This document shows positions 18,760-50,526 of a DNA stretch of 64,000 bases, piece by piece. The notes beneath the pieces are model-generated. The model searched no databases and was not told where the DNA came from. It was given only the letters and a program-made list of their open reading frames with translations. Where the stretch lies: positions 2,377,673 to 2,441,672 of the forward strand of contig CP070763.1 of NCBI GenBank assembly GCA_020349025.1. The letters are read 5' to 3'. Position numbers and translations under genes: made by a program. Source of the DNA: Candidatus Latescibacterota bacterium. GTDB taxonomy: Bacteria > Krumholzibacteriota > Krumholzibacteriia > G020349025. Positions within the stretch are counted from its first letter, which is position 1. Each line of letters starts with the position of its first letter.

Positions 18760-20601
18760 TTGCTGCTTCGAGCGGTCGCTCCAGGAAAACATGAACCGTG
18801 TCGCGGCGGGGTTGAGTTGCGGGAAGGGTCGCAGAGGCGAGCGGGAATCGAGCGGCGCGCGGCCGTGTCTCGAAAGGTGCGCGACGGCGCCCGAGGCGGG
18901 CAGCGCCAGGCGGCGACGGCTCGGCTGCGCAGCGACCAACGGGCGCGCACCCGCAGCCTTCCCCGCATTTGCATCGACAACATCGAGCCCGCGCCCCAGC
19001 GCACCGGATTGAAGCGACTCGTCGGCGACAGCCTGGAAGTCAGCAGCGACATCCTCTGCGACGGCGCCCCCGTTCTCGACGCATGTATCCGCTACAAGGT
19101 GCCCGGCGAGCCACGCTGGCGCTACGCGCCGCTGCGCCCGGCGCAAGAGCCGGAGCGCTGGTGTGGCGTGGTGCGGCTGCAGAGCGGTGGACTGCACCAA
19201 GTGGCCGTCGAAGCGTGGGTCGATCCGTTCGCCACCTGGCAGCGCGACCTGGCGGCGCTCCCCGACGACGATCCGAAGGCGCTCCTCGACGACGGGCGTG
19301 CGCTTCTGGAGCGAGCCGCCGCCCGCACGGCGGGGCTCGATCGCGAGTTCCTGGCGCAGCGGGCGCGCCAGCTCGAAACGGCGGAAGAGCCGCAGCGGAG
19401 CCGCCAGTTGGCACTCGACCCGCAGCTGGGCAAACGCATGCGCGTGCACGGCGACCGGCGCGAGCTGGTGCGCAGCGAGCCGCCGTTGCGCGTGACCGTC
19501 GACCGCAGACGAGCCGGTTTCGCGGCCTGGTGTGCATGCTCGCCCGAGGCGCCGCCCCAGAACGTGCGCATCGCGCTCGAGTCGGAGATCGAAGCGATCG
19601 CGGCAGCGGGGTTCGACGTTCTCTGTCTGCCGCGCGGTGCAACGCGCTCGAGCGCAGGCGGGCTTCCGGACGCGCGCCTCGCGACGCTGGCGCAGCGCGC
19701 GCGCCTTCTGGGTCTCGAGGTCGCTCTGGATCTGGGCACATGCGAGATCACGCCGCCCGCCCGAGCCGCGCAGGAGCCGGAGAGCTGGGCGCTGTGGCTC
19801 GATTCCATGCGCGCGTGGATCGAGCGTGGGATCGCCACCTTCCGGGTTGGCGCACCACACCTCAGGCCCTTTCCCTTCTGGTCGCAACTCCTGGAACGCC
19901 TGAAGAGGGAGCACCCGGAGGCCGTGATCCTCGCCGGGCGCTCACCCGAGAAGCACGCGCGCGCTCTGGCGCGGCTCGGCTTCTCGCAGACGGACCCTGG
20001 AGTGGAATGGAGCGCGGAGGCGCCTGCGCTGCGTCGCCGGCTCGAGCCGCTGTTTGGCGCCGGAAGCGTCGAGAGCATGCGTCCACACCTGCTCCTGGAG
20101 GCGTTCCAATCGACGCCGGGATCGTGCGCCGCCGCAGCAGCACGTGTTCAGCTTCTCCTCGCCGCCACGCTGTCCCCCCTCTACACGTTGCAGGTCGGGG
20201 ACGGGGGCTTCCGTGAGGTCGCAGGCGCGCTCGCGCAGGAAATCCGGCGCGTCAATCGCATGCGGCGCGAGAATCGCGCCCTGCAGCTGTTCACGAACGT
20301 TCGCTTCCTGCGCTCGGAAAACGAGCGCATTCTCTGCTTCTCGAAATCTTCACCGCATCATCGCAACGAGCTCGTGATCGCCGTCAACCTGGACACGCGA
20401 CAGGTGCAGGAAGGCACGGTCGAGGTCCCGCTCGATGCGCTCGGCTTGGGCCGCGAGCAGGAGTACGAGGTCGACGACCTGTGGAGCGGTCGGCGCTTCA
20501 CCTGGCGCGGCGAGCGCAACTTCGTGCGCCTCGATCCGCGACAGCAGCCGGGGCACGTCTTGCGTGTGGTTCGCGAGCGCGAGCTGGGGGTGTGTTTGTG
20601 A
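18760..20601 (+). CDS. GlgE-like (alpha-1,4-glucan:maltose-1-phosphate maltosyltransferase family, GH13_3) protein lacking catalytic residues. It is a probable pseudo-enzyme.
   Basis: The whole length aligns to GlgE (RICIDNIEP, DPFATWQRD, GFDVLCLP, LGLEVALDL, the C-terminal beta domain). GH13 region II reads FRVGAPH instead of FRVDNPH. Region III reads VILAGRSPE instead of VIFLAEAFT. The segment carrying the GH13 region-I-adjacent substrate loop (~30 aa) is missing. The start is uncertain: TTG 18760 or GTG 18865/18877. The stop TGA overlaps the treS GTG (GTGA). Confidence 0.7.
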   Translation: MLLRAVAPGKHEPCRGGVELREGSQRRAGIERRAAVSRKVRDGARGGQRQAATARLRSDQRARTRSLPRICIDNIEPAPQRTGLKRLVGDSLEVSSDILCDGAPVLDACIRYKVPGEPRWRYAPLRPAQEPERWCGVVRLQSGGLHQVAVEAWVDPFATWQRDLAALPDDDPKALLDDGRALLERAAARTAGLDREFLAQRARQLETAEEPQRSRQLALDPQLGKRMRVHGDRRELVRSEPPLRVTVDRRRAGFAAWCACSPEAPPQNVRIALESEIEAIAAAGFDVLCLPRGATRSSAGGLPDARLATLAQRARLLGLEVALDLGTCEITPPARAAQEPESWALWLDSMRAWIERGIATFRVGAPHLRPFPFWSQLLERLKREHPEAVILAGRSPEKHARALARLGFSQTDPGVEWSAEAPALRRRLEPLFGAGSVESMRPHLLLEAFQSTPGSCAAAAARVQLLLAATLSPLYTLQVGDGGFREVAGALAQEIRRVNRMRRENRALQLFTNVRFLRSENERILCFSKSSPHHRNELVIAVNLDTRQVQEGTVEVPLDALGLGREQEYEVDDLWSGRRFTWRGERNFVRLDPRQQPGHVLRVVRERELGVCL

Positions 20602-23600
20602 AGCCGCATTCGTTGTGGCACATGGACGCCATCATCTACGAGATGCACGTCAAGGCGTTCCGCGACAGCAATCGCGACGGCTTCGGCGACTTTCGCGGCC
20701 TCACCGAGAAGCTCGACTACCTCGAGCGGCTCGGGGTCAATTGCATCTGGTTGCTTCCCTTCTACCCCTCGCCACTGCGCGACGACGGCTACGACATCTC
20801 GCTGTACGAGGGGATTCACGAGAACTACGGCTCGTTGCGCGATTTCCGCCGCTTCGTCCGCGAAGCGCACCGTCGCGGGCTGCGTGTGATCACCGAGCTG
20901 GTGCTCAACCACACTTCAGATCAACATCCCTGGTTCCAGGCCGCACGTCGCGCCCAGCCTGGGTCGTCGAAGTGGAACTTCTACGTCTGGAGCGACACGG
21001 GCCAGAAGTACCCCGACGCGCGCGTCATCTTCGTCGATTCTGAGACGTCGAACTGGACCTGGGATCCGGTGGCGAAGTCGTACTTCTGGCATCGCTTCTT
21101 CCACCACCAGCCGGATCTCAACTTCGACAACCCGGCCGTGGTGCGCGCCATCATCAAGGTGATGCGTTTTTGGCTCGACCTGGGCGTCGACGGGCTCCGG
21201 CTTGACGCCGTGCCCTATCTGGTGGAGCGCGAGGGCACGCACTGCGAGAACCTCGAGGAGACGCATGCAATCTTGAAGAGGCTCCGGCATGAGCTCGACG
21301 CGCACTACGAGGACAAGATCTTCCTGGCCGAGGCCAACCAGTGGCCGGCCGACGTGCGACCCTACTTCGGGGCGGGCGACGAATGCCACATCGCCTACCA
21401 CTTCCCCGTGATGCCACGCATGTTCATGGCTCTGCGGCAGGAGGACCGCCATCCGATCGTGGAGATCCTGGCACAGACGCCAGAGATCCCGGACAACTGC
21501 CAGTGGGCTCTGTTCCTGCGCAACCATGACGAGCTGACGCTCGAGATGGTGACCGACGAGGAACGCGACTACATGTACGGCGAGTACGCCAAGGACCCTC
21601 TCATGCGCCTGAACGTCGGCATCCGCCGGCGCCTCATGCCGTTGCTCGATGGCAACCGCAGGCAGTACGAGCTGCTGCACTCCATGTTGATGTCGCTCAA
21701 GGGCACTCCCGTCATCTATTACGGTGACGAGCTGGGGATGGGGGACAACATCTACCTGGGGGACCGCGACGGTGTGCGGACGCCGATGCAGTGGACGGGG
21801 GATCGCAACGCCGGCTTCTCCGAAACGGACGCCGCCCGGCTCTACAGCCCGGTGATTTCCGACCCGGTTTTCGGCTACCAGGCGGTCAACGTCGAGGCGC
21901 AGGAACGTCTGAGCACGTCGCTGCTGTCGTGGATGCAAAGCCTCATTCGGGTGCGCAAACAGAGCAAGGCATTCGGTCGTGGCAGCTTGCGCGTCCTCGA
22001 GCCGGAGAACCGCAAGGTCTTCGTCTACCTGCGCGAGTACCGCGACGAGACCCTGCTCATCGTCAACAACCTGTCGCGCCAGGCGCAAGCGGTCGAGATC
22101 GACCTGCAGGAGTTCGCCGATCGGGTGCCCGTGGAGCTCTTCGGCAACAGCGCTTTTCCCGCCGTCGGCGAGCTTCCCTACCTCCTGACCTTGGGGCCGT
22201 ACGGCTTCTACTGGTTTCGCCTGGCTCGCGCGGGGGAGCGACCGCAGCTACCGCCGCGCATCGTGCCGCGCGTCCAGGAGGACGTGCCGGTGCTGACGCT
22301 GGCGGGTCCACGCTCCGATGCAACCTCGGCTCCGGTGCTCGAAGCGCTGGAGAGCTCCGTGCTCATCCGCTTCCTGCTCGAACAGCCGTGGTTCGACGGC
22401 TCTGTACGAACCCCGCGCTCCGCACGCGTCGTGGAGGTCATCCCGTTGGCAGGGGAATGCGCCGTGTTCGCGCGCCTGGATGTGCGCTTCAGCGACGCGC
22501 TCCACGAGTCGTACCTGGTCGTGTTCATGGCTGCCGAGAACGCACCGGAATCGGCGATCGTCGCCGGCGCCGTGCTGGCGCAGCTGCGCTGTCGGGAGGG
22601 TGATGGGTTTCTCTTCGATGCCGCACACGACGCGCGCTTCCAAGCTCGTCTGCTGGAGATCGTGCGTGCAGAGCCGGAGATTGCGTCGGAGGATGGCGCC
22701 CGGATTCGCATCCGTGTCAGCGCGGGAGGACTCGATCTTCCAGAGCAGGTGGGCGCGCGTCTGCTCGACGACGAGCCCGTCGAGGGCAGCCCACCTCTCG
22801 AGAGCGCCGGCGAGGCGGTTGCGAGCGACGCACGTCGTGCGCCGGAGGCGGCGGGCGCCGGAGTCGTGCCGCAGCGCCTCGGTGCGCACGGCGAGCCGGA
22901 GCAGTCCGAGGTGCCGGAATGGGGTCCCGGCGACGGGACGCCGGTGCTCCCGCGTTTCCGTCGTCGCTCGCAGACGTCGATCGTGTACGGCGAGCGCTTG
23001 CTCCTGAAGCTGTACCGCAGACTGGAGCCGGGATCGCACCCGGAAGTGGAGATGCTGGAGATCCTGGGCAAACGGCCGGCGTTCTCACCGGTGCCGCCCC
23101 TCGTGGCGCGCCTCACTCTGGAGAGCGGGGACGCAACATTCGCGGTGGGCGTGCTGCGACGTTTCGTTCCCGACGTGGCCCCTCTCTGGTCCATGGCACG
23201 GCGCGATCTCGACGAACACCTGCTCACCGAACGCGTGCCGCAGCGGAAGGACGGCTTCGTCGACACGGCGGCGCGTCTTGGCGGCTTGACTCGGCGCCTG
23301 CACGAGACGTTGGCGGAGCGCTTCGCTGCAACGTCGGACGCCGCGCGTCCCGCGAATCGTTCCGATCTCGAGCAATGGGGGCGTCGCGTCCGCCGCCTGG
23401 TCACCCACACCTTGCACGAGCTGAACGCCAGCTGTGACGACGGCGCGCTCCCGGCCAAACTGTACCGCGACGCACGCGCGGTCGTGAACCGGAGCACGAA
23501 GGCGGCCGATCGCGTCGATCATTTGATCTCCAGCTTTGGTGCACAGCTGGGGATCGTCACGCGCGTGCACGGTCGCTATCGACTGCAGGACGTTCTGCGC

Positions 23601-24014
23601 ACACCGGATGGGGGACTGATGGTCGTCGGCTTCGAGGGAGACCCTGCGCTCCTCTTCGGCGAACGCCGACGTTTGGAGAGCCCGCTACGCGACGCGGCCA
23701 GCATGCTGCGTTCGTTCGCCTACGTGGCCACCGAAGCGGTCGGGATGCACGTCGATCCGGCGACACGGCGTCGCGCCGAGGAGCGCGCCGACCAGTGGGA
23801 GCGCAGCGCCAGGACGGCGTTTCTTCGCGGCTACATGGGAGAGCGCCGCGCCGCACCCTCGCCGGTCCTCCCGCCGCGTCGCGACGCTGTCTCAAAGCTC
23901 CTCACCCTCTTCGAGATCGAGGCCCTCTTCCGTGAGCTGCACGATCAGATCGTGCACGACCCGGAGCGCGTCGGTCTGCCCCTCAAGCGAATTCGCACGC
24001 TTCTCGACCTTTGA
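20598..24014 (+). CDS. treS: Trehalose synthase (maltose alpha-D-glucosyltransferase) fused to a C-terminal maltokinase-like (Mak/Pep2) domain.
   Basis: The four GH13 regions are intact: VLNHTS, GLRLDAVPYL, FLAEANQWP and FLRNHDELTLEMV. TreS-specific stretches are present (FHHQPDLN, GDNIYLGDRDGVRTPMQW). The ~540 C-terminal residues have a Mak-like fold. The Mak catalytic loop reads HGRYRLQD (consensus HGDxHxxQ/N) and the DFE motif reads GFEGDP. GTG 20598 (VKPHSLWHMDAIIYE) overlaps the upstream stop. Confidence 0.85.
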   Translation: MKPHSLWHMDAIIYEMHVKAFRDSNRDGFGDFRGLTEKLDYLERLGVNCIWLLPFYPSPLRDDGYDISLYEGIHENYGSLRDFRRFVREAHRRGLRVITELVLNHTSDQHPWFQAARRAQPGSSKWNFYVWSDTGQKYPDARVIFVDSETSNWTWDPVAKSYFWHRFFHHQPDLNFDNPAVVRAIIKVMRFWLDLGVDGLRLDAVPYLVEREGTHCENLEETHAILKRLRHELDAHYEDKIFLAEANQWPADVRPYFGAGDECHIAYHFPVMPRMFMALRQEDRHPIVEILAQTPEIPDNCQWALFLRNHDELTLEMVTDEERDYMYGEYAKDPLMRLNVGIRRRLMPLLDGNRRQYELLHSMLMSLKGTPVIYYGDELGMGDNIYLGDRDGVRTPMQWTGDRNAGFSETDAARLYSPVISDPVFGYQAVNVEAQERLSTSLLSWMQSLIRVRKQSKAFGRGSLRVLEPENRKVFVYLREYRDETLLIVNNLSRQAQAVEIDLQEFADRVPVELFGNSAFPAVGELPYLLTLGPYGFYWFRLARAGERPQLPPRIVPRVQEDVPVLTLAGPRSDATSAPVLEALESSVLIRFLLEQPWFDGSVRTPRSARVVEVIPLAGECAVFARLDVRFSDALHESYLVVFMAAENAPESAIVAGAVLAQLRCREGDGFLFDAAHDARFQARLLEIVRAEPEIASEDGARIRIRVSAGGLDLPEQVGARLLDDEPVEGSPPLESAGEAVASDARRAPEAAGAGVVPQRLGAHGEPEQSEVPEWGPGDGTPVLPRFRRRSQTSIVYGERLLLKLYRRLEPGSHPEVEMLEILGKRPAFSPVPPLVARLTLESGDATFAVGVLRRFVPDVAPLWSMARRDLDEHLLTERVPQRKDGFVDTAARLGGLTRRLHETLAERFAATSDAARPANRSDLEQWGRRVRRLVTHTLHELNASCDDGALPAKLYRDARAVVNRSTKAADRVDHLISSFGAQLGIVTRVHGRYRLQDVLRTPDGGLMVVGFEGDPALLFGERRRLESPLRDAASMLRSFAYVATEAVGMHVDPATRRRAEERADQWERSARTAFLRGYMGERRAAPSPVLPPRRDAVSKLLTLFEIEALFRELHDQIVHDPERVGLPLKRIRTLLDL

Positions 24015-24074: not shown

Positions 24075-24845
24075 ATGACGCCGACTCCTGTACCGGATGT
24101 TCATTGCCACCTGGATCAGCTCGCCGATCCGGAGCGCGCGGTGGAGGAAGCGCTGGAAGCGGGAGTCACTCCCATCCTCGCCGTCGGCATGGAGCAAGCT
24201 TCGAGCGAGCGCGCTCTCGAGCTGCGCGAGAAATACCCGGCTGCTTTGCGCGTCGCGGTGGGGTTGCACCCGAGCGAGATCCCGAGTCTCGAGGCGGAGG
24301 AGCTGCGCGCCGAGCTCGCCTTCGTCGAGCAGACGCTGCGCGATGCGGATGCGCTCGGCGAAGTGGGGCTCGACTACCGCGACGCGGTCGACGAAGAGCA
24401 GCGCCAGCGGCAGCGTCAGGCGTTGCGGCAACAGCTGGAGTGGGCGGAGCATGAGCGCAAGCCATTGAGCATGCACTGCCGCCGAGCGGAGCACGAAATC
24501 GTCGATCTCGCCACGCAGTTCGTGCAACGCACCGCACTCGGCGTCAACCTGCACTGGTTCACGCACTCGGAGAAGCTGGCCCACGTCTGCGGCGAGAAGG
24601 GCATCTACATCTCGCCAGGACCCTCGATCCTGTCGAGCGAACCGCAAGCGAGCGTCGCACGCAGCATCGTTCCGGGCTACCTCCTCGTGGAAACGGACAG
24701 CCCGGTCGAGTTTGGCGGCGAGCCGGCGCGCCCAGCTTGGGCTCGAAAGGTGGCGCAGGCGCTCGCCGACCTCCGCGGCGAGTCTCTCGAGTCGCTGGCG
24801 CAGCGGCTGCAGGAGAATGTCGAGCGCTACCTGCGATCCACCTGA
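24075..24845 (+). CDS. tatD: TatD family metal-dependent hydrolase (DNase).
   Basis: DVHCHLD, GLHP, GEVGLDY, MHCR and LLVETDSP give the characteristic TatD metal-ligand pattern. The protein is 256 aa. Confidence 0.85.
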   Translation: MTPTPVPDVHCHLDQLADPERAVEEALEAGVTPILAVGMEQASSERALELREKYPAALRVAVGLHPSEIPSLEAEELRAELAFVEQTLRDADALGEVGLDYRDAVDEEQRQRQRQALRQQLEWAEHERKPLSMHCRRAEHEIVDLATQFVQRTALGVNLHWFTHSEKLAHVCGEKGIYISPGPSILSSEPQASVARSIVPGYLLVETDSPVEFGGEPARPAWARKVAQALADLRGESLESLAQRLQENVERYLRST

Positions 24846-33091: not shown

Positions 33092-36000
33092 TCAGTCGCC
33101 CGAGGCAGGAAGGTGACGCCGGCGTCGCAGACGCGACACCGCGGCCACGAGGCCGGAGGGACGGTTGACGTGCACGTGGCCGCTGCGGCTCCAGATGCCG
33201 CGCGCGTAGTCGAGCAGGCGTTCTTCGAGGACGTAGAAGGTGGGGAGCACGATCAGGGTCAAGGCGGTGCCGGACAGGAGTCCGCCGATGAGCGCGCGAG
33301 CCATGGGGTAGTACTGCGCGTCCGACATCGCGGTGTCGCTGAGTGCGAGCGGCAGCAGCCCGAGAACCGTGGTGGCCGCCGTCATCAGGATCGGGCGGAA
33401 GCGCTCGCGCCCCGCTTCGATGATGGCGTCGTGGAGCGGCAAGCCGCGTCTCCTGAAGGTGTTGACGTGGCTGATGAGGACGATGCCGTTGTTGACGATG
33501 ACGCCGATCAGAACGACGACGCCGATCATCGCCATGATGTTCATGGGCGTGTTGGTGAGCGCCATCAGCCAGATGACCCCGAAGATGGCGAACGGCACCG
33601 TGAGCATGATGACGAGTGGGTGCAGGAACGACTCGAACAGCGCGGCCATCACGAAGTAAACGCAGGCGAGCGCGAGCTGGATGTTCAGGAACATTTCGTT
33701 CTGCTCCTGCGCGACGCGCCGGTCCTCGCGGCCGAACGACCAGGCGTACCCCGCCGGCAGCACCATCGTGCTCATCAGCTCCGCCATCTCTTCGCGCGCG
33801 TCGCCGAACTCTTCACCTTCGTACGTGCCCAGGATGCTGATCGACGTGCGCTGCTGCTCGCGGTGGATGTTCGTCGGCGCGTGCTTGAACTGGAAGTCCG
33901 CCACCTGTTCCAGCGTCACGGGGCGGCCATCCTGGATGCCGATCGTCATGACGCGCAGATGCTCGAGGCTCTTGCGATCCTCCGGCGTCAGCAAGATCCC
34001 GATCGGCACCTCCCGGTCGTCCGCTTGCATCTCGCGCAGGTCGACACCACGGAAGGTGAGATTCAGAATGCCGGCGATGCCGTTCGGGTTCACGCCGAAG
34101 CGGCTCGCCTTTTCCCGGTTGACGATGACGTGCACCTCTTCCCGGCCCTGCTCCACGTTCGTGCGCACGTCGTGCACGTCGTGTACGAGAGCCATGCGCC
34201 GCTTCGCTTCGACGGAGAGCTCGGCCAGCATGTCGGAGTCCTCGCCGAAGAGCGACACGCGCAGAGTCTGCGCGCCCATGTTGGGCGCGTCGTCGTCTCC
34301 GAGCATGTAGGTCACACCCGCCTGCTCCGGTAGCTCCTCGCGGAACATGTCGCGCAGGTCACGGATCTCGCGCTCGCGCAGCCGGTGGTCGAAGAACAGC
34401 GTCACCTGGCCGAGGTTGTCCATGAAGAAGCTGTAGACCTCGGCACCGAGCGAGTCGGACTTCGTGAGCAGGTAGTCCTCCACGTTCTTCACGTACTCGT
34501 CCGCTTTGTAGACGTTGACGTTGTCATGGAAGCGCAAACGCACCATCAGTCGATTGGTGCGGAAGCCACGCTCACCGAACGTGTCCATCCCGAACCCGCT
34601 CAGCTTGGTCATGCCGATCGTCGCTGGAATCAGCGCAAGAATCAGCAACAACGTCAGCACCGGGTGCTCCGACGTCGTCCAACGCAACACCCGGATGTAG
34701 CGTGCCTGCAGTGCAGCCACCACGCGCGAAGGCTCGCCCGCTTTGGGCGCACGCAGGCGCGCAGCCATCAGTGGAACGAGCGTGAGCGAGATCAGGAGCG
34801 AGAAGAGGAGCGTCACGGAAAGCGTCAACCCCACCTCGCGCAGCCAGACGACGATCTGGTCTCCGCCCCCCAGGACGATCGGTGCGAAGACGATGACCGA
34901 CGTGAGCGTGGACGCCGTCACCGCGACGCCCACCTCGCGCGCACCCGACTCCGAGGCGGAGTTCCCCCTTTCGCCACGCAGCTGATGGCGGTAGATCGAC
35001 TCCAGGACGACAATGGCGTTGTCGACAAGCATTCCGACCGCCAACATGAGCCCCATCATCGTCAGCAGGTTGAGTGTCTTGCCGCTCAGGTAGAGGAAGA
35101 CACACGTCGCCATGATCGAGAAGGGGATCGCCGTCGCCACGACGATCGTCGTGCGCACGTGGCGCAGGAAGAAGAAGAGCACGAAGACGGCGAGCAGCGA
35201 GCCCACGACCCCCGAAACCAGCAACCCGTTCAGCGACTCCAGAATCTCGTCGGCCTGATCGAAGAAGAGAACGAGGTCGATTCCAGCGAGCGCCGGATCC
35301 TCCGCAGCACGGTCGAGCGCGCGCTGGACCGCACGCGAGACGTCGACGATGTAGGCGCCGGACGCTTTCTGGATCTCGAAGGCAATGGCGGGTTCACCGT
35401 TCAGACGTCTGTACCAGTTCGCATCCGGCTCGCGCTCGACCACGTCGGCGATGTCGGCGAGCACGAGACCCTGTCCGGAGATGCGCAGGTTGGCGATCTC
35501 CTCCGCCGTCTTGTAGGCGCCCACCGTGCGCAGGTTGTAGCGCATCCCCGCGGTGGTCACCTTGCCGACCGAGAGGTTGATGTTGTTGCTGTTGAGCTCG
35601 CGGAAGACGCGGTTGACGTCGATCTGGTGCGCCTTGATCGCATCCATCTTCAAATAGATGGTGACCTCGCGTGGCGCGATCCCATCGATCTGGACGCGCC
35701 CCACGCCCTCGATGCGTTCGAGCGGCTTGATGATCTTGCGTTCCAGGAGCTCGTACGATCCGGCCAAGTCGCGGTTCTTCGCCGAGATGCGCCCCACCAT
35801 GATCGGGATGTCGTTCGAGTTGAAGGTGAACAGGAAGATGTCGCGCACGTCGGAGGGCAGGTCGGCGCGCACCTGGTCGATGCGTTCGCGCACGTCCATG
35901 CGCATGACGTCGACGGGACGGCCGAACTCGAACTCCACCCACACCCAGCACCCCTGGGAGTCGCTGTTCGATCCGATCTCGTGCACGTCGCCGAGGGTGG

Positions 36001-36214
36001 CCAGGACCTCCTCGAGCGGCTTGGCGATCTCGCGCTCCACCTGGGTGGGGAGCGCGTTCGGGTAGGGCACGTTGACGACGATGACCGGAAAATCGACATC
36101 GGGGAGGAAGTTGATCTTCAGGCGCGTGACCGAGATGAAGCCGAGGACGAGGAGCGTCAGCACCATCATCAGCACGGTGACCGGCCGCGTCAGTGCCATG
36201 CGCGTCAGCTTCAC
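33092..36214 (-). CDS. RND (HAE1-family, AcrB/MdtC-like) efflux permease. Second permease of operon 1.
   Basis: 1040 aa with 12 TM segments. Canonical RND N-terminus (MKLTRMALTRPVTVLMMVLTLLVLG) and a conserved VDNAIVVLE motif. GTG start with GGAGGA upstream. Confidence 0.9.
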   Translation of the reverse strand: MKLTRMALTRPVTVLMMVLTLLVLGFISVTRLKINFLPDVDFPVIVVNVPYPNALPTQVEREIAKPLEEVLATLGDVHEIGSNSDSQGCWVWVEFEFGRPVDVMRMDVRERIDQVRADLPSDVRDIFLFTFNSNDIPIMVGRISAKNRDLAGSYELLERKIIKPLERIEGVGRVQIDGIAPREVTIYLKMDAIKAHQIDVNRVFRELNSNNINLSVGKVTTAGMRYNLRTVGAYKTAEEIANLRISGQGLVLADIADVVEREPDANWYRRLNGEPAIAFEIQKASGAYIVDVSRAVQRALDRAAEDPALAGIDLVLFFDQADEILESLNGLLVSGVVGSLLAVFVLFFFLRHVRTTIVVATAIPFSIMATCVFLYLSGKTLNLLTMMGLMLAVGMLVDNAIVVLESIYRHQLRGERGNSASESGAREVGVAVTASTLTSVIVFAPIVLGGGDQIVVWLREVGLTLSVTLLFSLLISLTLVPLMAARLRAPKAGEPSRVVAALQARYIRVLRWTTSEHPVLTLLLILALIPATIGMTKLSGFGMDTFGERGFRTNRLMVRLRFHDNVNVYKADEYVKNVEDYLLTKSDSLGAEVYSFFMDNLGQVTLFFDHRLREREIRDLRDMFREELPEQAGVTYMLGDDDAPNMGAQTLRVSLFGEDSDMLAELSVEAKRRMALVHDVHDVRTNVEQGREEVHVIVNREKASRFGVNPNGIAGILNLTFRGVDLREMQADDREVPIGILLTPEDRKSLEHLRVMTIGIQDGRPVTLEQVADFQFKHAPTNIHREQQRTSISILGTYEGEEFGDAREEMAELMSTMVLPAGYAWSFGREDRRVAQEQNEMFLNIQLALACVYFVMAALFESFLHPLVIMLTVPFAIFGVIWLMALTNTPMNIMAMIGVVVLIGVIVNNGIVLISHVNTFRRRGLPLHDAIIEAGRERFRPILMTAATTVLGLLPLALSDTAMSDAQYYPMARALIGGLLSGTALTLIVLPTFYVLEERLLDYARGIWSRSGHVHVNRPSGLVAAVSRLRRRRHLPASGD

Positions 36215-36236
36215 GTCGCTCCTCCGTTCGGGAAGG

Positions 36237-39200
36237 CTACGGGCGCCGGTCGACGACGGAGTAGAAGACCGGGATGACGACCAGGGTCAACAACGTCGAG
36301 AGCGTCAGGCCGCCAATGACCGCGATCGCCATCGGCGCGCGGATCTCAGCACCTTCGCCGAACCCGAGCGCCATCGGTGTGAGACCCAGCACGGTCGTCA
36401 GCGTGGTCATCAGGATGGGACGCAAGCGCACGCTCGCCCCCTCGCGCAACGCTTCGATCTTGGAGCGGCCGCGCTGCCGCAGCCGGTTCACGTAGTCGAC
36501 GAGAACGATCGAGTTGTTGACCACGATTCCCGACAGCATGATCACGCCGAGGAAGACGACGACACTGACGGTCGTCCCGGTCAGCGCCAACGCCAGAATG
36601 ACGCCGATCAACGCCAGTGGCACAGTCCCGAGAATGACGAACGGATGCAGCAACGACTCGAACTGGCTCGCCATCACGATGTACACCATGAAGACGGCGA
36701 GCAGGACGGCGAGAATCAGGCTGCGGAAGGAGTGCTGCAGCTCCTCGTTCTGCCCGGTGAGCTCCGCCGTCACCGTTCCGGGAAGCGGCGTGGATGCCAG
36801 CACCGCGTCGATGTCGCGCGACACGGAGCCGAGATCGCGGCCCGCCAGGTCGGCGTAGACGAGCGCGGCTCGCTGCTGGTCCAGGTGCTCGATCTGACTC
36901 GGACCGCGCTCGACGGCGATGTCGGCGACCGACGAGAGCATGACCGGGATCCCCTCCGCGTGCGCGACGACGAGGTTGCCCACCTGACCGATGTCGATGC
37001 GGTCGGCGCGCTCGGTGCGGACGAGAATGTCGATCTGGCGGTCACGCTCCTTCAGGCGCGTCGCGGCGTCGCCGCGGATCTTGTTGCGCAGCGTTCTCGA
37101 GATGGCGTCGATGTCGAGGTCCATCGCCGATACGCGCGCGCGATTGAAGGCAATCTGAACCTCGGGACTTCCGGGTTGCAGCGAAGCGCGCACGTCGCGC
37201 AGTCCAGGCACCTGCCGCAGACGCTGGACGAGGACGTCCGTGGCCTCCGCGAGGTCGTCGAGCTCGAAGCCGTACACCTCGATCTCGATCGGCGTGCGGA
37301 AGCTGAAGTAGCTGGGTCGCCGAAATTCGTAATCGAGATCTTCAATCGACTCGAGTTGCCCGCGGATGTCCTCGACCACGCGTTCCTCGACCACATTGTT
37401 GGCTCGCTCCTTCAATACGACGTTGATCTGCGCCAAGCTCGGCTTCTTCGAGTTGACGTCGGCGCCGAGTCGATCGGTGCCCCCGACGTCGACGAAGACG
37501 GTGCGCAAGCGCCGATCGTGGACGAGGTTGCGCTCGACGTTCGAGATGGTGGCGTCGGTGACGGGCAAAGGCGTGCCGTCCGGGAGCTGCGCCTCGAACG
37601 TGAACTCCCCCTGCGTGAACGATGGGATGAGCTCCATGCCGAGCATCGGAACGAGCGCGATGCAGACGGCAAACAGCGCTCCCGTACCCAGAAGGACGGG
37701 CGCGCGGTGCGCCAACGCCCAGTCGAGGAGCGGCGTGTACGCCGTCTGAACACGCGAGAAAGCGGCGTCGAAGATCGGGAAGATCGTGCGACGACAAAGT
37801 GCCATGAAGGAACCGAGCAACACTCCCGACCGGTTCGACTCGTCGAGCTCGTAGAACGGGAAGAGGAAGCGTAGGATCGCGATGAACCCAACGACGAGTG
37901 GGATGATGATGTAACGCCAGATCCCTTTGATGATCGGCGTCAGCAAGCCGTCGAGCACGAGCCAGACGAGCTGACGGATCGGCCACAACAGCAGCCAGAC
38001 GATGCGAACGATCCAGCGCGCAACGAACCACACGAGCCGGAGCGGGAAGAAAACGAGCCGCAGCACGCGCGGCATCGGAACCACGGCCTCACCGTTCTGG
38101 ACAGCGTAGGCCTTGAGCGAATCGACTCCGTTCTGCGCCGCGCTCTCGTCCGGCTGCACGCTCGCCAAGCGCCACCAGTAGCCGGGGCGCAGCGCCGAGA
38201 CCATGGGAATCAGGGTGAGAGCGACGATGAGCGAGACGATGAGGGAGAAGGTGACCGTCAACGCCTGATCCTTGAAGATCTGGCCCGCGACGCCCTCGAC
38301 GAAGACGATCGGCAAGAAGACCGCGACCGTCGTGAGCGTCGAAGCGACGACGGCGCGCCCCACCTCGTTGGCACCGCGCTCGGCGCTCTCCGGCGCGTTG
38401 TCCTCCCCCTTGCGATGGCGGGCGATCGCTTCCAGCACGACGATCGAGTTGTCGACCAGCATGCCCACACCGAGGGCGAGACCCCCCAGCGACATGATGT
38501 TGAGCGTCACGTTCATCTGTCGCATCAAGACGAACGTCGCGACGATCGAGACGGGAATCGACATCGCGATGATCATCGTGGAGCGCGGATCCTTGAGGAA
38601 GAGGAAGAGGATCAGGACCGCGAGGATTCCACCGATGATGGCGTTCGAGCGTACCTCGTTGATCGAGTTCTCGATGAAGACCGACTGATCGAAGAGGATG
38701 GTCGTCTCGACGCCCGGCGGCAGCCTTTGCTGCAGCCAGTCGAGTCGGTCGCGAACACGCTGCGCCACCCGCACCGTGTTGCTGTCCCCCTCCTTGTAGA
38801 TGGAGACCTGCACGCACTCCCGTCCGTTCACGCGCGAGATGATCTCGCGCTCCTGCCAGCCGCGATCGACGCGCGCCACGTCGCCGAGCGTGACCCGACG
38901 ACCTTCCTCGTCGAGCAGGATGACGCGCTGGATGTCGTCGACGTCGGCGAGCTCGTTGAGCGTGCGCACGAGGAACTCGGCATCGCGGTCGCGTAGACGT
39001 CCACCGGAAGCGTTGATGTTGTTCTGGCTCACCACCCGGGTGACGTCCGTGATCGACACGCCGAGGAGCGCCATCTTGCCCTCGTCGAGGTCGACGTGGA
39101 TCTCTTCGACCAAGCCGCCCTGGACGCGCGCTGAGGCGACTCCATCGAGAGCCTCCAGGTCTTTCTTCAGCGTCCGATCCACCCAGTGACGCAGAGCGAT

Positions 39201-39641
39201 CATGTTGGAGTCACCGTGAGCCGCCACGCGCAGAACCGGATCGAGCGTAGGGTCGAAACGCAACAGGATTGGAGGGCTCGCATCGTCGGGCAGGCGCACC
39301 AGGTCGATCTTTTCGCGCACGTCGAGGCTGGCGTAGTCCATCTCGGTATCCCAGGCGAACTCGAGAACGATCTGGGACATCCCCGACTGCGACACCGAGT
39401 GCATCTTGCGCAATCCCTGCACTACCGCAACCGCCTCCTCCAGCGGTTCGGTGATGAAGGCTTCCACCTCGGCCGGTGCCGCGTCGGCGTACTCGGTCTG
39501 GATCGTGAGCGTCGGGTAGGAGATTTCCGGCAGCAGATTCACCGAGAGGCGCCCGAGCGAGACGAATCCGAAGAGCACCACGGCGATGGTGGCCATGGAA
39601 ACCGTCACCGGATGGCGGATGGAGAAGCGGATGATGCCCAT
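36237..39641 (-). CDS. RND efflux permease (MdtB-like). First permease of operon 1, with a ~100-aa Trp-rich insertion.
   Basis: 1134 aa. RND N-terminus (MGIIRFSIRHPVTVSMATIAVVLFG) and the LVDNSIVVLE motif. An extra hydrophobic, W-rich segment lies at aa ~495-600, between TM6 and TM7. This segment is absent from the paralogue. Confidence 0.9.
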   Translation of the reverse strand: MGIIRFSIRHPVTVSMATIAVVLFGFVSLGRLSVNLLPEISYPTLTIQTEYADAAPAEVEAFITEPLEEAVAVVQGLRKMHSVSQSGMSQIVLEFAWDTEMDYASLDVREKIDLVRLPDDASPPILLRFDPTLDPVLRVAAHGDSNMIALRHWVDRTLKKDLEALDGVASARVQGGLVEEIHVDLDEGKMALLGVSITDVTRVVSQNNINASGGRLRDRDAEFLVRTLNELADVDDIQRVILLDEEGRRVTLGDVARVDRGWQEREIISRVNGRECVQVSIYKEGDSNTVRVAQRVRDRLDWLQQRLPPGVETTILFDQSVFIENSINEVRSNAIIGGILAVLILFLFLKDPRSTMIIAMSIPVSIVATFVLMRQMNVTLNIMSLGGLALGVGMLVDNSIVVLEAIARHRKGEDNAPESAERGANEVGRAVVASTLTTVAVFLPIVFVEGVAGQIFKDQALTVTFSLIVSLIVALTLIPMVSALRPGYWWRLASVQPDESAAQNGVDSLKAYAVQNGEAVVPMPRVLRLVFFPLRLVWFVARWIVRIVWLLLWPIRQLVWLVLDGLLTPIIKGIWRYIIIPLVVGFIAILRFLFPFYELDESNRSGVLLGSFMALCRRTIFPIFDAAFSRVQTAYTPLLDWALAHRAPVLLGTGALFAVCIALVPMLGMELIPSFTQGEFTFEAQLPDGTPLPVTDATISNVERNLVHDRRLRTVFVDVGGTDRLGADVNSKKPSLAQINVVLKERANNVVEERVVEDIRGQLESIEDLDYEFRRPSYFSFRTPIEIEVYGFELDDLAEATDVLVQRLRQVPGLRDVRASLQPGSPEVQIAFNRARVSAMDLDIDAISRTLRNKIRGDAATRLKERDRQIDILVRTERADRIDIGQVGNLVVAHAEGIPVMLSSVADIAVERGPSQIEHLDQQRAALVYADLAGRDLGSVSRDIDAVLASTPLPGTVTAELTGQNEELQHSFRSLILAVLLAVFMVYIVMASQFESLLHPFVILGTVPLALIGVILALALTGTTVSVVVFLGVIMLSGIVVNNSIVLVDYVNRLRQRGRSKIEALREGASVRLRPILMTTLTTVLGLTPMALGFGEGAEIRAPMAIAVIGGLTLSTLLTLVVIPVFYSVVDRRP

Positions 39642-39644
39642 GGG

Positions 39645-40991
39645 TTACTTCCGCGCCACGTCGGTGTCGCCGGCTTCATCCTCGGAGCTCTGCTCCTCGT
39701 CGGCGTCCGACTCTGCCGTCTCGGCACCGAGCTCGCGCACGCGCGTTCCGTGCTTCAGACCGCCCTGGCCGACGGTGATGACACGCTGGTCGTCGTCGAG
39801 CCCGACGAGCACTTCGGCGAACTCCTCGTCGGTGTAGCCGGTTTCCACACGCACCTTGACGACGCTGTCCGCCTCGGCGCGGAAGACGTAGGTCTCGCCA
39901 CCATCCTCGATGAGCGCCACCTTCGGGATCACGAGCGCGTCCTCGTGCATGTCGGTCGTGATCTGCACGCGGACGAAGGAACCGATGCGAAGCGTCTCCG
40001 GGGCCGCGTCCAGCTCCACGGTGACCTTCACGGTTCCGGAGCGCGTATCGACGACCGGTGCGATCATGCGCACGCGCCCCGGGTGGGAGAGGTCGTCCTT
40101 GGCGTCGGGGAAGACGCGCACGCGTTGACCCACCTCGATGCGGTCCACCTGCCGCTCCGGCATGTAGACGCGCACGAGAAGCGGATCGAAGTCGGCCACG
40201 TCGAAGAGCGCTTCGTTGACCTGCACATACTGACCGACGTCGATGTGGCGCAGGGTGACGCGACCGCTGAAGGGCGCACGCACCTTCGTGTAGTCGAGCC
40301 GAATCTCACCGACGAGAAGCTTCGCGGCGGCTTCGTCCATGAGCAGCTTCTTGTCTTCGAACTCGCGATCGCTGGCGAGATCCTTCTCGAGGAGTGAGCG
40401 CGTGCGCTCGTACTCGTTCTGGAGGCTCTGGGCCCGCACACGCAGCTCCTGCAGGCGCGCGGCCTCTTCGGCGTCGTCGATCTGCAGCAAGACCTGTCCG
40501 GTCTCGACGTTGTCACCCTCCTCCACGAGGATCTTCTCCACCGTGCCGGCGATCTTGGCCAGCACCTGGGCCTCCTGCAGCGCCTCCACCGTGGCTGTGC
40601 CGGTGAAGTAGGAGGGCACGTCACGACGGCTCACCGCCGCCATCTCGACGGGGACCGCGGGCTCCTCCTCTTCCTCCTCCTCGGGCTCCTCGTCGTTCCC
40701 ACCCCCCAGGAAGGCGAAGAAGCCACCACGCTTCTTCTTCTTGGCCTGGGTCGCGGTCGAGTCTGTCGCGGCGCTGTCGTCGAGCGCCACGGCGGTGGAG
40801 TCGGTCCCCGCCGAATCGGCGGCCGTCTCGCTGGCCTCTGCGGTCTCCGGTTCCTCGCCCCTCTGCAACAACGTCGCGCCGGCCACGATCGCAACGAGAA
40901 CGACGAGGCCGCCCAGGGCGCGCAGAACGCGCCGCCGGCGGCTTCTGGGTTGGTCCTGCGATGCGCTCAAAGCCGCTCCTCTCGCCAGCAC
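39645..40991 (-). CDS. Efflux RND periplasmic adaptor (membrane fusion protein, HlyD family) with an acidic low-complexity N-terminal linker.
   Basis: The N-terminal TM anchor is LGGLVVLVAIVAGATLL. Lipoyl/beta-barrel MFP motifs are present (EEGDNVETGQVLLQIDD, RAPFSGRVTLRHIDVGQYV). The stop abuts the permease start with a 3-nt gap. Confidence 0.8.
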   Translation of the reverse strand: MLARGAALSASQDQPRSRRRRVLRALGGLVVLVAIVAGATLLQRGEEPETAEASETAADSAGTDSTAVALDDSAATDSTATQAKKKKRGGFFAFLGGGNDEEPEEEEEEEPAVPVEMAAVSRRDVPSYFTGTATVEALQEAQVLAKIAGTVEKILVEEGDNVETGQVLLQIDDAEEAARLQELRVRAQSLQNEYERTRSLLEKDLASDREFEDKKLLMDEAAAKLLVGEIRLDYTKVRAPFSGRVTLRHIDVGQYVQVNEALFDVADFDPLLVRVYMPERQVDRIEVGQRVRVFPDAKDDLSHPGRVRMIAPVVDTRSGTVKVTVELDAAPETLRIGSFVRVQITTDMHEDALVIPKVALIEDGGETYVFRAEADSVVKVRVETGYTDEEFAEVLVGLDDDQRVITVGQGGLKHGTRVRELGAETAESDADEEQSSEDEAGDTDVARK

Positions 40992-41352
40992 CGGGCTCGC
41001 AGCCTACGGGTTTCGGTGGATTCGTCTCCCCGCTGAGCACTACGCAGTCGACCGGTGCGAGGTTCGCCCTATTTCCGCCGGTCTGGAACGGAGGGGGGCC
41101 GCGGGGCTGCGTTCGGCGCCCGATCCGCTTGGGATCGAGCGGGCACCCGCATGCCGGCGAGCCCGGGACCTCGCTGCGGAGGGGTAAGGGGCGTTCCAGG
41201 TCGCGACGGGTGTTCACGCTTCCACAGCTTCAACGGGCCCAGGGGGTGGGAGTGTTACGTCGCCAGCGGCGTGACGTGGCGCTACACTCTGCGAACCCCA
41301 CGCACGGCATCCGTGCCGATCCGCCGCTTCCGTTCTGCAGGAGGGAGGGGAT

Positions 41353-47415: not shown

Positions 47416-50400
47416 TCAGTCGCCAGCCGTCGGCGTGTGCGGGATACGGCGCGGGCGCACGATCCGGAGCCGGCGCAACGTGCCGATCGTCCCACGCTTC
47501 ATGAGCCCGGGCAGATCCTCGGCGAGCGTCACCGTCGTCGGCAGCAGGACGAGCGTCAGGACGGTCGAGATGGCCAGTCCTCCCATGATGACGAGCGCCA
47601 TCGAGTAGTAGTAGACCCCCGCCAGCGTCGGTTTCTGCACCACGATCGGCACCAGGGAGAGGAGCGTCGTCGTCGCCGTCATGAGGATCGGCCGCAGGCG
47701 CTCGCGGCCACCGTGGATCATTGCCGTGATGCGCTGCTCGCCGTGACGCCGGTAGGTGTTGATGTGCTCGATCATGACGATGCCGTTGTTGACGACGATG
47801 CCGATGAGAAGGAGGAGCCCCACCGCCGCCGGTTGATCGAAGTCGGTGCCGCTCGCATACAGCGTCCACGCCGCGCCGCTGATGGCGAAGGGGAGCGCGA
47901 TCAGGAGAGCCACGGCTTGGCGCATCGACTCGAACAGGCTGGCCATGACCGCGAAGATGAGCAGCAGAGCCAAGATCAGGTTGTCGCGAAACTCGGTGGC
48001 CTTCTCCTGCTGCCGGCGTCCGAAGTTGCCGAAGCTCCAGGCGTAGCCGTACGGCATCGCGAAATCCTGCATCGCTGCACGCACCGACTTCATGTGCTCG
48101 TCGCGTGTGCCCTCTTCGTAGCGCGCTCCCACCCACACGCTGGTGCGGCGGGCGTCGCGATTGATGCGCTCCGCTCCGGGGACGACACGAAAGTCGGCAA
48201 CGGCGCCGAGGGGGATGGTGGCACCGTGGTCTGCCTGTAGCCTCAGGTTGCGCAGCTGTGCCAGGCTCTCACGATCCTGCTCGTCCAGGGTGAGTCGCAT
48301 CTCGACCTCGCCGTTGGCGGTGCGGAAGCGGCGCAGCGGACGACCGCGGAAGGTGAGCCCGACGACCTGCCCCGGCTGATCGAGGTTCATCCCGTAGCGG
48401 TGCGCCAGCACCCGGTCGATGCTCACGTGCACCTCCTGCTGCCCTTCGCGGTTGCTCGAGAAGCTCTCGTAGAGGCCGGGAATCGCTTCCAGTCGCTTGC
48501 GTGCAGCATCCGCCAGATCCGCGAGCACCTCCGAATCCTCACCCGTGAGCTGGAAGGCGACGCGTTTGCCGCGATCCTGGCGCCAGAACTGGCGGTTCTC
48601 CATGACCTCGAGCTTGACGCCGGCGACGGCCGGGAGCGCGTCGCGCAGGCGCCGCCGGATGCGCGTCATGTCCTCCTCGGTGGCGTGACCCTCCTTCGGG
48701 TAGAGCCGCGTCAGCGTCCAGCGGTCGCTCCAGAAGCTGTAGATCGAGCGCAGGTTGAAATCGTCCCGGTACGGTTCGAGCGCCTGTTCGACGACGGTGA
48801 CGAGCTCCTCCTTGCGCTCCAGGCTCGGCTCCTCGCTGAACTCGTAGCGCACCTGCACGAACATCTCGCTCTCGTTGGTGTCGAAGTTCATGTCGATGTG
48901 CGTGAAGGGGAAGACCGCCGAGGCCGTGATCCCGAGCCCCACGATCGGTGCGATCCAGCGGTGGCGCAGATTGAAGCCGAGCGCACGCACGTAGTGTTTC
49001 TCCAGCCAGGTCATGAAACGGCCTGGCTCCTGCGCTTTGGCGCGAATGAAGCGCGACGTCGCCAGCGGGATCAGGGTCTGGGTGACGAAGAGCGACGCCA
49101 GCAGCGTGATGGCGACCGTGAGGCCGAGCTCGCGCAGGTAGATGTTCATCTCACTCGGCTTGTTGAAGATGAGCGGCAGGAAGGCGATCACCGACGTGAG
49201 CGTGGCTGCGGTCACCGCGAGCGACACCTCGCGCGAGCCGACAAACGCCGACTTGCGCGCGCTGTACCCCTTCGACTGGTAGCGGAAGATGTTCTCCATC
49301 ACAACGACGGCGTTGTCCACGAGCATGCCGATGCCGACGATCAGCCCGAGGAGCGTGAGCGTGTTCAGCGACTTCCCCTGCAGGAAGATCACGCCGCAGG
49401 TGGCGATCAGCGAGAAGGGGATGCACACCACCGCAACGAGCGTGGTGATGAGACGGCGCAGGAAGGCGTAGAGGACGATCGTCGCCAGGATGGCACCGAC
49501 GACCCCCGTGTTGCGCAGGTCGTCCAGCGTCGTGCGGATCTCCTTGCCCATGTTGAACCACACGAGGATGTTGATTCCGTCCAGCTCCGGATCGGTCGCC
49601 ATCCCCTGCAGACGCGAAACCACCTGATCGCAGATGACGACAGCGTTGGCGCTCGGCTCCTTGTTCACCGTGATGCCGACCGCGAAGTTGCCGTCGAGGT
49701 GGCGCCCGTACTCGAGCGGCGGCTCCTCGTAACGCACGTCGGCCACGTCGCGCAGCTTCAAGCCGCGCTCGTTCAGCGGCAGCTGGGCGATCTCCTCGAC
49801 GGCGGCGAATGTCGCCACCGTGCGCAGGCTGTAGCGGTTCTCGTCGCCACGCAGCGTGCCGAGCGCTTGGTCGAAGTTGTTGTTCTGCAGCAGCCGCACG
49901 ACGTCGCGCACGTCGACGCGGTGGCGCGTGAGATCCGTGAGGCGCAGGTTGATGCGCACCTCGCGCGGGTTGACCCCGTCCAGATTCACCTGCGCCACAC
50001 CGGGGATGCGTTCGAGCGGTCGGATGATCTTGCGATCGAGCAGGTCGTAGCTGTGGCTGAGGTCGAGCTTCGACGAGATGCGCGCCTCGAGAACCGTCTC
50101 GGAGGTCTCGACCGCGTCCCAGTTGCTGGAGACGCTGATCTCCCCGATGTCGTCCGGCAGCTCCTTCTTGATGCGATCGATCTTCTCGTGCACCTCGACG
50201 CGGACGAGATCCATGTCCATGGCCCAGTCGAACTGGGCGCGGATGCCGCCGCCGTTCTGGTCGCACCAGGACCACATGTGCTTGAGGCCCTTGACCGAGC
50301 CGATGCTCTCCTCGAGAGGCCGCACGATGCTGCGCTCCACCTGCTCCGGCGAGGCATTGGCGTACGGCACGCGAATGAAGAGCGCCGGCTCATCCACCTC

Positions 50401-50514: not shown

Positions 50515-50526
50515 GCGTCCTCCCAC

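Follow-up and report, generated by a model that had tools for sequence, protein, structure and literature searches.

The gene treS-mak*, at positions 20622 to 24014 of the 64,000-nucleotide stretch of a Candidatus Latescibacterota bacterium genome analysed here (contig CP070763.1; hereafter, the window), encodes a trehalose synthase, TreS, fused to a maltokinase-like domain, Mak. We consider it likely that only the TreS half of this fusion is enzymatic, that the steps making and using maltose-1-phosphate (M1P) have been inactivated jointly, and that a non-catalytic pseudo-Mak has been kept as a partner of TreS. The GlgE pathway, which comprises TreS, Mak, GlgE and GlgB, is widespread, and in mycobacteria it is a validated drug-target pathway, since its intermediate M1P is toxic. 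In the window, a single open reading frame (ORF) holds an N-terminal TreS and a C-terminal domain with the Mak fold, and it adjoins a glgE homologue. Judged by its residues, the encoded protein, UCE04229.1, is a TreS with a putative pseudo-maltokinase domain and not a bifunctional TreS-Mak. The domain was filed as a pseudo-maltokinase because it lacks the catalytic residues of maltokinases and scores below the cutoff of the curated family. At NCBI, the protein is labelled as a maltose alpha-D-glucosyltransferase only.

The roles of individual Mak residues were taken from the enzymes of M. vanbaalenii (Mvan) and M. tuberculosis (Mtb) (PMC4306142). The translation of positions 23568-23642 of the window is HGRYRLQDVLRTPDGGLMVVGFEGD. 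In the catalytic loop, the base, which is Asp in 100% of the canonical homologues (Mvan D305), is replaced by Arg. The loop His (Mvan H307) is also replaced by Arg, the loop Gly by Gln, and the Mg1-binding Gln (Mvan Q310) by Asp. The Mg-binding Asp of the DFE motif (Mvan D322, Mtb D339) has become Gly. The P-loop has Arg at both E134 and Q135 and Gln at N137, while the gamma-phosphate Ser136 is kept (Mvan numbering). In the maltose pocket, Mvan K413, Y416 and Y420 correspond to Ala, Arg and Asp, respectively. In the Mtb enzyme, D339N and an N145 mutant are inactive and S144A loses 97% of the activity; mutants of K413, Y416 and Y420 have almost no Mak activity left (PMC4306142). Overall, of 61 columns with a conservation of 88% or more among canonical Maks, 21 have changed, and these changes cluster in four functional elements, namely the catalytic loop, the Mg ligand, the P-loop and the maltose pocket. 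The scaffold is kept and includes the phosphate-binding Lys, the His of VAxVH, the His and Gly of HGD, the Phe and Gly of DFEG, the Asp of DVA, the MLRSF motif, and conserved Trp, Tyr and Pro residues. Such a domain would be unable to make M1P.

The first-pass annotation had reported HGRYRLQD at 23568-23591 in place of the HGD motif and GFEGD at 23628-23642 in place of DFEGE, and both peptides and their coordinates proved exact. It had allowed that the register might be off; this doubt is removed by phmmer, which aligns the HGRYRLQD and GFEGDP pair ungapped with HGDLHLGQVLRTP..(L/I)IDFEGEP of three solved maltokinases. In the alignment with Mak/Pep2 sequences the window's domain has an Asp in neither catalytic column. 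The loss of both signature aspartates thus stands, and the damage is wider than had been described, for the P-loop Asn, the Mg-binding Gln and the Lys, Tyr and Tyr of the maltose pocket are gone too. The domain remains recognizable, with phmmer E-values of 2e-27 to 3e-25 to the maltokinases 4u94, 5jy7 and 4o7o (2e-27 to 4u94). It scored 218.7 bits against TIGR02457 (TreS_Cterm; maltokinase Mak/Pep2, EC 2.7.1.175), below the cutoff of 375.05, and no match to Pfam APH (PF01636) was found in it.

In a 59-sequence alignment of the domain, HGD is found in 57 and DFE in 56 of the 58 database homologues, and K209 and R212 of the LLKLYRR motif are invariant. A HMMER search over 1.84 billion cluster representatives returned 5551 relatives, of which only protein P0001 (locus L001) was more than 40% identical. 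P0001 is also the only other full-length sequence that lacks HGD among the 206 nearest homologues (58 + 148).

The TreS half, on the other hand, appears to be active. It scored 904.3 bits against TIGR02456 (GH13_16), above the equivalog cutoff of 678.35, and it is about 72% identical to the solved TreS 5x7u (E 9e-257), with the GH13 catalytic Asp/Glu/Asp in place and all four GH13 regions identical or conservatively replaced. The earlier description of four intact GH13 regions is borne out by this score and by the match of the motifs to 5x7u.

The protein encoded directly upstream has lost the GlgE active site, in line with the dead GlgE named in the first-pass annotation. Its nucleophile motif FRVDNPH is replaced by FRVGAPH (19840-19860) and the acid/base motif SEAF by AGRS (ILAGRS at 19927-19944). 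Parts of both its catalytic domain and its domain B are deleted, with over 100 residues missing. Pfam matches are limited to the N/S and C domains, and no NCBIfam model matched the protein, which would thus be unable to use M1P.

The divergence of the window from locus L002, which encodes a 93% identical fusion, was used to estimate dN/dS (the ratio of nonsynonymous to synonymous substitution rates, omega) by the Nei-Gojobori method, at a dS of about 0.25. Omega is 0.046 for TreS and 0.076, 0.070 and 0.036 for three segments of the Mak C-lobe; the segment with the catalytic and DFE loops has an omega of 0.07. Pooled, the C-lobe has 7 nonsynonymous and 37 synonymous differences, so that 16% are nonsynonymous, compared with 74% expected under neutrality (binomial p = 9e-16). 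Omega is 0.25 for the Mak N-lobe, 0.21 for the N-terminal cap (N-cap), and 0.58 for the insert at 22758-22949, the latter being indistinguishable from neutral (p = 0.096). For comparison, the GlgE-like gene has an omega of 0.38 (p = 3e-9), and nine flanking genes range from 0.065 to 0.25. When the window was compared with P0001, for which dS is near saturation, the C-terminal two thirds gave omega values of 0.09-0.19, like those of TatD and RecD2. The Mak-like domain is maintained by purifying selection and is not a decaying pseudogene, because the constraint on its C-lobe is as strong as that on TreS. In the operational sense of a homologous domain that lacks essential residues and is under purifying selection, it is a putative pseudoenzyme (pseudokinase), its inactivity being read from the lost residues.

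The predicted structure of the domain agrees with its homology. The AlphaFold2 model has a predicted local distance difference test score (pLDDT) of 84.5 and a predicted template modelling (TM) score of 0.86, with a pLDDT of about 90 for the N-cap and below 50 for the insert (domain residues 126-189). The best Foldseek matches in the PDB were Mak 4u94 (E 9e-29, target TM 0.77) and the Pep2 chains of 5jy7 (target TM 0.77-0.81 for these matches), followed by a glucosamine kinase. The model supports the view that the maltokinase fold, comprising the N-cap, the N-lobe and a helical C-lobe, is retained.

Orthologous loci, which were reached via neighbouring proteins, place these changes in order. 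Four JGI samples (L002-L005) have the 93% identical fusion, in which the motifs HGRYRLQD and GFEGDP recur unchanged, and their synteny is identical to that of the window, with ferredoxin, GlgE-like, TreS-Mak, TatD and RecD2 genes. P0001, which is about 59-60% identical, has HGHSRLQD and DFAGD, and its gene is followed by those of TatD and RecD2. In L006, which is 45-48% identical to the window in Mak and 87% in TreS, the motifs are HGRYRLQE and DFEGDP. The window, L002 and L006 therefore have Arg (HGR) at the position of the base, and P0001 has His there. Locus L009, from the Krumholzibacteriia metagenome-assembled genome (MAG) GCA_046757105.1, has a Mak domain that is the nearest relative of the window's; the identity is 86% for TreS and 48-53% for Mak. 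Its gene order, BrkB, ferredoxin, GlgE and TreS-Mak, is that of the window, and its Mak shares with that of the window a clade-specific helical segment, DLExWG..RRLVT..L..LN.SCDDGALPA.LYRDARA. L009 has canonical Mak motifs (TEQTNTS, HGDFHLGQ and DFEGEP) and a canonical GlgE of 688 amino acids (FRVDNPH, SEAFTRP).

The HG[RH]xRLQ[DE] loop is a shared derived state of the four dead lineages (window, L002, P0001 and L006) and the older change, because it is common to all of them while the DFE Asp persists in P0001 and L006. The replacement of this Asp by Gly is recent, being limited to the window and L002. The Mak-like clade is small, consisting of one cluster at 50% identity plus L006, and even in lineages that are only about 45% identical the domain is of full length. 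Over 235 shared columns, the Mak of L009 is 44.8% identical to 11 canonical Maks, close to the mean of 44.6% among the canonical ones themselves, whereas the three dead domains are 34-36% identical to the same set, which indicates accelerated change after inactivation. No further relative was found when the contigs of GTDB-representative genomes and metagenome contigs were scanned with clade-specific peptide patterns.

The states of the two enzymes go together among the loci. A dead GlgE stands beside a TreS-Mak with a dead Mak in the window, L002-L005 and L006; in L007, L008 and L010, GlgE is dead and TreS-Mak is absent; in L009, both are of the canonical type. An active-type Mak beside a dead GlgE was found in none of the lineages compared. 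This absence fits the documented toxicity of M1P: attempts to transform E. coli with a treS-mak plasmid failed when GlgE was lacking (PMC7935935), and inactivation of GlgE or GlgB kills M. tuberculosis via M1P accumulation (PMC11046441). The best reading of these sequences is that the M1P-making and M1P-using steps were inactivated together in the lineage of the window, since L009 retains both in an active-type form.

We propose that the ancestral locus had both Mak and GlgE activity, as the syntenic L009 still seems to, because its GlgE and Mak motifs are canonical. Mak and GlgE would then have been inactivated together, and the locus would no longer channel trehalose to alpha-glucan. Fusion to Mak biases flux toward trehalose consumption (PMC11046441); a TreS without this ATP-driven pull would equilibrate maltose and trehalose, and it would probably make or salvage trehalose instead of feeding alpha-glucan synthesis. 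The dead Mak domain would have been kept as a docking, scaffolding or regulatory partner that TreS needs. In the TreS:Pep2 complex of mycobacteria, the TreS beta-sandwich is contacted mostly by the C-lobe of Pep2 (PMC6509496). Since this lobe docks on TreS there and bears a TreS-like constraint here, the role of pseudo-Mak is probably structural or regulatory. The first-pass annotation had offered two alternatives, a structural role for inactive Mak and GlgE modules and the loss of the M1P-dependent alpha-glucan route with trehalose-maltose interconversion retained. The residue losses and the purifying selection on the C-lobe support a non-catalytic role, and the intact TreS beside a Mak and a GlgE without catalytic residues supports the loss of the route; the two readings are compatible with each other. 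Genes for glgB, glgA, glgC, otsAB, treYZ, and stand-alone mak or glgE were not found in the 64-kb window. Homologue lists gave no stand-alone Mak or second GlgE of the 3,836,608-bp source contig, which is a weak negative, as these lists missed the window's own cluster (P0327/P0328), which exact look-up places in the collection.

Several points weigh against this proposal. A stand-alone Mak or GlgE could lie elsewhere in the 3.84 Mb genome. The inactivity of Mak is deduced from a comparison of residues, and some pseudokinases stay active through non-canonical residues. In this case the position of the former Mg-binding Gln has become acidic (Asp/Glu), the Lys that binds phosphate persists, and the DFE Asp is still found in P0001 and L006. 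The role as a structural partner is drawn by analogy with mycobacteria, in which the published salt-bridge residues Pep2 D218 and D228 fall in a gapped region of the phmmer alignment and have an ambiguous numbering. The dN/dS values are pairwise comparisons with small counts. Finally, the alignment used by AlphaFold2 is dominated by canonical Maks, so that the family fold is partly expected and the model is supportive rather than independent.

The domain could instead be a ligand sensor, in which an Arg-rich pocket and the Lys bind a nucleotide or sugar phosphate without catalysis and gate TreS allosterically, possibly together with the pseudo-GlgE. The remodelled loop is conserved across four lineages that are 45-63% identical, its segment is among the constrained ones (omega 0.07), the domain still has the Lys that binds phosphate, the His of VAxVH and the Asp of DVA, and in mycobacteria the ATP site and the TreS interface have elements in common (PMC6509496). 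However, constraint is weaker (omega 0.25) on the N-lobe, which forms the bulk of the nucleotide pocket, and the degenerate P-loop comes after a disordered insert. Given that the C-lobe is conserved in general, the conservation of three residues in the loop is no compelling statistical evidence. We regard this possibility as unlikely. If true, a former alpha-glucan module would have become a regulated trehalose/maltose switch, and an allosteric role would be established for the first time for a pseudokinase of the bacterial sugar-kinase type.

It is quite improbable that the domain is a functionless relic awaiting deletion, constrained by the need to avoid misfolding or aggregation of the fused TreS. 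The complete loss of treS-mak in the related L007, L008 and L010, the faster evolution of the dead Maks compared with the active-type L009, and the relaxed insert and N-lobe would agree with it. Yet the omega of the C-lobe is as low as that of TreS, the full length is kept at about 45% identity, and no truncation to TreS only was seen at the locus, at which the gene is either whole or absent.

Continued kinase activity, by non-canonical catalysis or on a new substrate as a neo-functionalized small-molecule kinase, is very doubtful. The acidic residue gained at the former Gln310, the retained Lys, the DFE Asp of P0001 and L006, the His that replaces the base in P0001, and the purifying selection on the active-site segment could be taken in its favour. 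However, the domain has lost the base, the P-loop Asn, the entire acceptor pocket and, in the window and L002, also the Mg-binding Asp, all of them together; at several of these positions one mutation is enough to inactivate Mak (PMC4306142). The M1P consumer GlgE was lost too, contrary to continued M1P synthesis, and neither the TIGR02457 cutoff nor a Pfam APH match is reached. Although the source is a MAG, the chance that faulty sequencing, assembly or alignment register accounts for the substitutions is negligible, as the same motifs are found in five independent contigs from other samples, L002-L005 included, and related motifs in the two divergent lineages L001 and L006, and no gaps surround either motif in the alignment to the three solved Maks.

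Table 1 Coordinates of the treS-mak* gene, its motifs and neighbouring features in the window.
Feature	Position	Strand	Remark
GlgE-like gene	18865..20601	+	UCE01593.1, 578 amino acids, 100% identical; directly upstream of treS-mak*
treS-mak* gene	20622..24014	+	NCBI protein UCE04229.1, 1130 amino acids, start at ATG 20622
TreS half	20622..22226	+	GH13 catalytic domain and C-terminal beta-sandwich
TreS region I, ELVLNH	20895-20918	+	
TreS nucleophile motif, GVDGLRLDAVPYL	21183-21221	+	
TreS acid/base motif, FLAEANQ	21321-21341	+	
TreS motif FLRNHDELT	21513-21539	+	
Mak N-terminal cap subdomain	22371..22631	+	Pfam PF18085 Mak_N_cap, 26.6 bits, cutoff 22
Disordered insert, Ala/Pro/Glu-rich	22758..22949	+	About 65 residues, lineage-specific, between cap and P-loop remnant
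Degenerate P-loop, RRRSQTS	22959..22979	+	Consensus xEQSNTS
Phosphate-binding Lys motif, LLKLYRR	23001..23021	+	Equivalent to AMLKV; retained
Remodelled catalytic loop, HGRYRLQD	23568..23591	+	Consensus HGDxHLGQ
GFEGDP	23628..23645	+	Consensus DFEGEP; Mg-binding Asp replaced
Former maltose-pocket helix, LFEIEALFRELHDQIVHDPER	23907..23969	+	
TatD-family hydrolase gene	24075..24845	+	Downstream of treS-mak*
Tandem pair of large RND/AcrB-family transporter genes	33092-39644	-	First of two separate pairs; unrelated to treS-mak*
HlyD-type adaptor gene	39645-41003		After the first RND/AcrB pair; unrelated to treS-mak*
Tandem pair of large RND/AcrB-family transporter genes	47416-54060	-	Second of two separate pairs; unrelated to treS-mak*

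The start of treS-mak* may lie upstream of the annotated ATG, at GTG 20598, which overlaps the TGA of the GlgE-like gene as GTGA (20598-20601). An equal overlap of 4 nucleotides between the GlgE-like and treS-mak genes is found in L006 (2776 versus 2779), where the N-terminus MKPHSLWH is conserved and the equivalent of ATG 20622 is missing. The two genes are probably translationally coupled, because the overlap is present in both the window and L006. By exact look-up, no record of the 1177- and 1138-amino-acid forms of TreS-Mak was found, only the form starting at ATG 20622 being recorded; the exact look-up of protein P0059 likewise gave no match. ORFs on the opposite strand (e.g. 22208-23497, minus) were rejected as high-GC artefacts, as the GC content by codon position and the pattern of synonymous and nonsynonymous changes fit the plus frame. 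The insert of the Mak-like domain is present in the window and L002, different in P0001, and missing from L006 and L009. The TatD-family gene comes after treS-mak* in every locus that has the latter, with conserved synteny in L001 and L002, whereas L007 and L008 lack both; gain or loss may thus affect the two genes jointly.

The GlgE-like protein belongs to a degenerate family whose other members P0060, P0062, P0063, P0064 and P0102 have 570-613 amino acids and are 36-85% identical. The gene of every member follows the same small ferredoxin gene, and every member lacks the nucleophile and acid/base residue and has large deletions. These genes lie at 18865-20601 in the window, 2099-3856 in L007, 4609-6321 in L008 and 505-2328 in L010, and the ORF is intact in the three lineages without treS-mak (L007, L008 and L010). 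Its persistence where treS-mak was lost suggests that the degenerate GlgE has a non-catalytic function independent of TreS-Mak.

Two further Mak homologues have unusual features. P0045 (387 amino acids, from a JGI contig of 293,514 bp) is unrelated to the window's domain and has HGDYHLRR and GFGDD; it keeps the catalytic Asp and lacks the DFE Asp and the Mg-binding Gln, and it may be a second, independent degenerate maltokinase. In P0247 (1134 amino acids), a canonical Mak domain comes after a stretch that aligns with the C-terminal region of GlgE (SEEYLASEKY ... VRLDP ... VLRL), and the protein appears to be a GlgE-Mak fusion rather than a TreS-Mak.

The locus can be regarded as a natural experiment, in which the steps that make and use M1P would both be inactivated while both proteins are still under selection. 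It suggests that Mak and GlgE have non-catalytic roles, for instance as a scaffold or regulator of TreS or in glucan binding, which are difficult to recognize where the enzymes are active. The removal of the ATP-driven pull of Mak would alter the physiological direction of TreS, which bears on how these uncultured bacteria make or use trehalose. Furthermore, annotation by homology would report a functional GlgE pathway too readily for Latescibacterota and related MAGs; the labels at JGI are 'trehalose synthase-fused maltokinase' and 'starch synthase (maltosyl-transferring)'. Full-text searches of the literature found no paper joining maltokinase with pseudokinase or GlgE with pseudoenzyme, and the fusions covered by a 2024 review of alpha-glucan enzymes are all active ones (PMC11046441).

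The closest known systems are the TreS-Mak (TreS-Pep2) fusions of Pseudomonas aeruginosa PAO1 and Estrella lausannensis, which UCE04229.1 resembles in domain order, in its length of about 1100 amino acids, in linkage to glgE and in a canonical TreS (PMC7935935, PMC11046441). The shared layout consists of a GH13 TreS, a C-terminal beta-sandwich, a linker, the Mak N-cap and the kinase lobes. However, the characterised fusions make M1P and have the HGD, DFE and EQSNTS motifs, while the window replaces the catalytic, metal-binding and maltose-binding residues. The best matches of the domain in both sequence and structure are the mycobacterial Mak/Pep2 and the TreS:Pep2 hetero-octamer (4u94, 4o7o and 5jy7). 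The mycobacterial interface spans two TreS protomers. Pep2 is a separate and active polypeptide, whereas the pseudo-Mak is fused, and its docking on TreS is presumed. The syntenic L009, with the same gene order and clade-specific helix, represents the active state of the same locus.

Pseudokinases are proteins with a kinase fold that lack the catalytic Asp, the DFG Asp or both, and that are kept as scaffolds or allosteric regulators. The Mak-like domain resembles them in its homologous fold, in the loss of the catalytic-loop and metal-binding Asp, in the retention of the beta3 Lys and in being under purifying selection. The well-known pseudokinases, however, are mostly eukaryotic protein kinases, while the domain described here is a bacterial sugar kinase domain of the ELK/APH type, fused to an isomerase of a glycoside hydrolase family.

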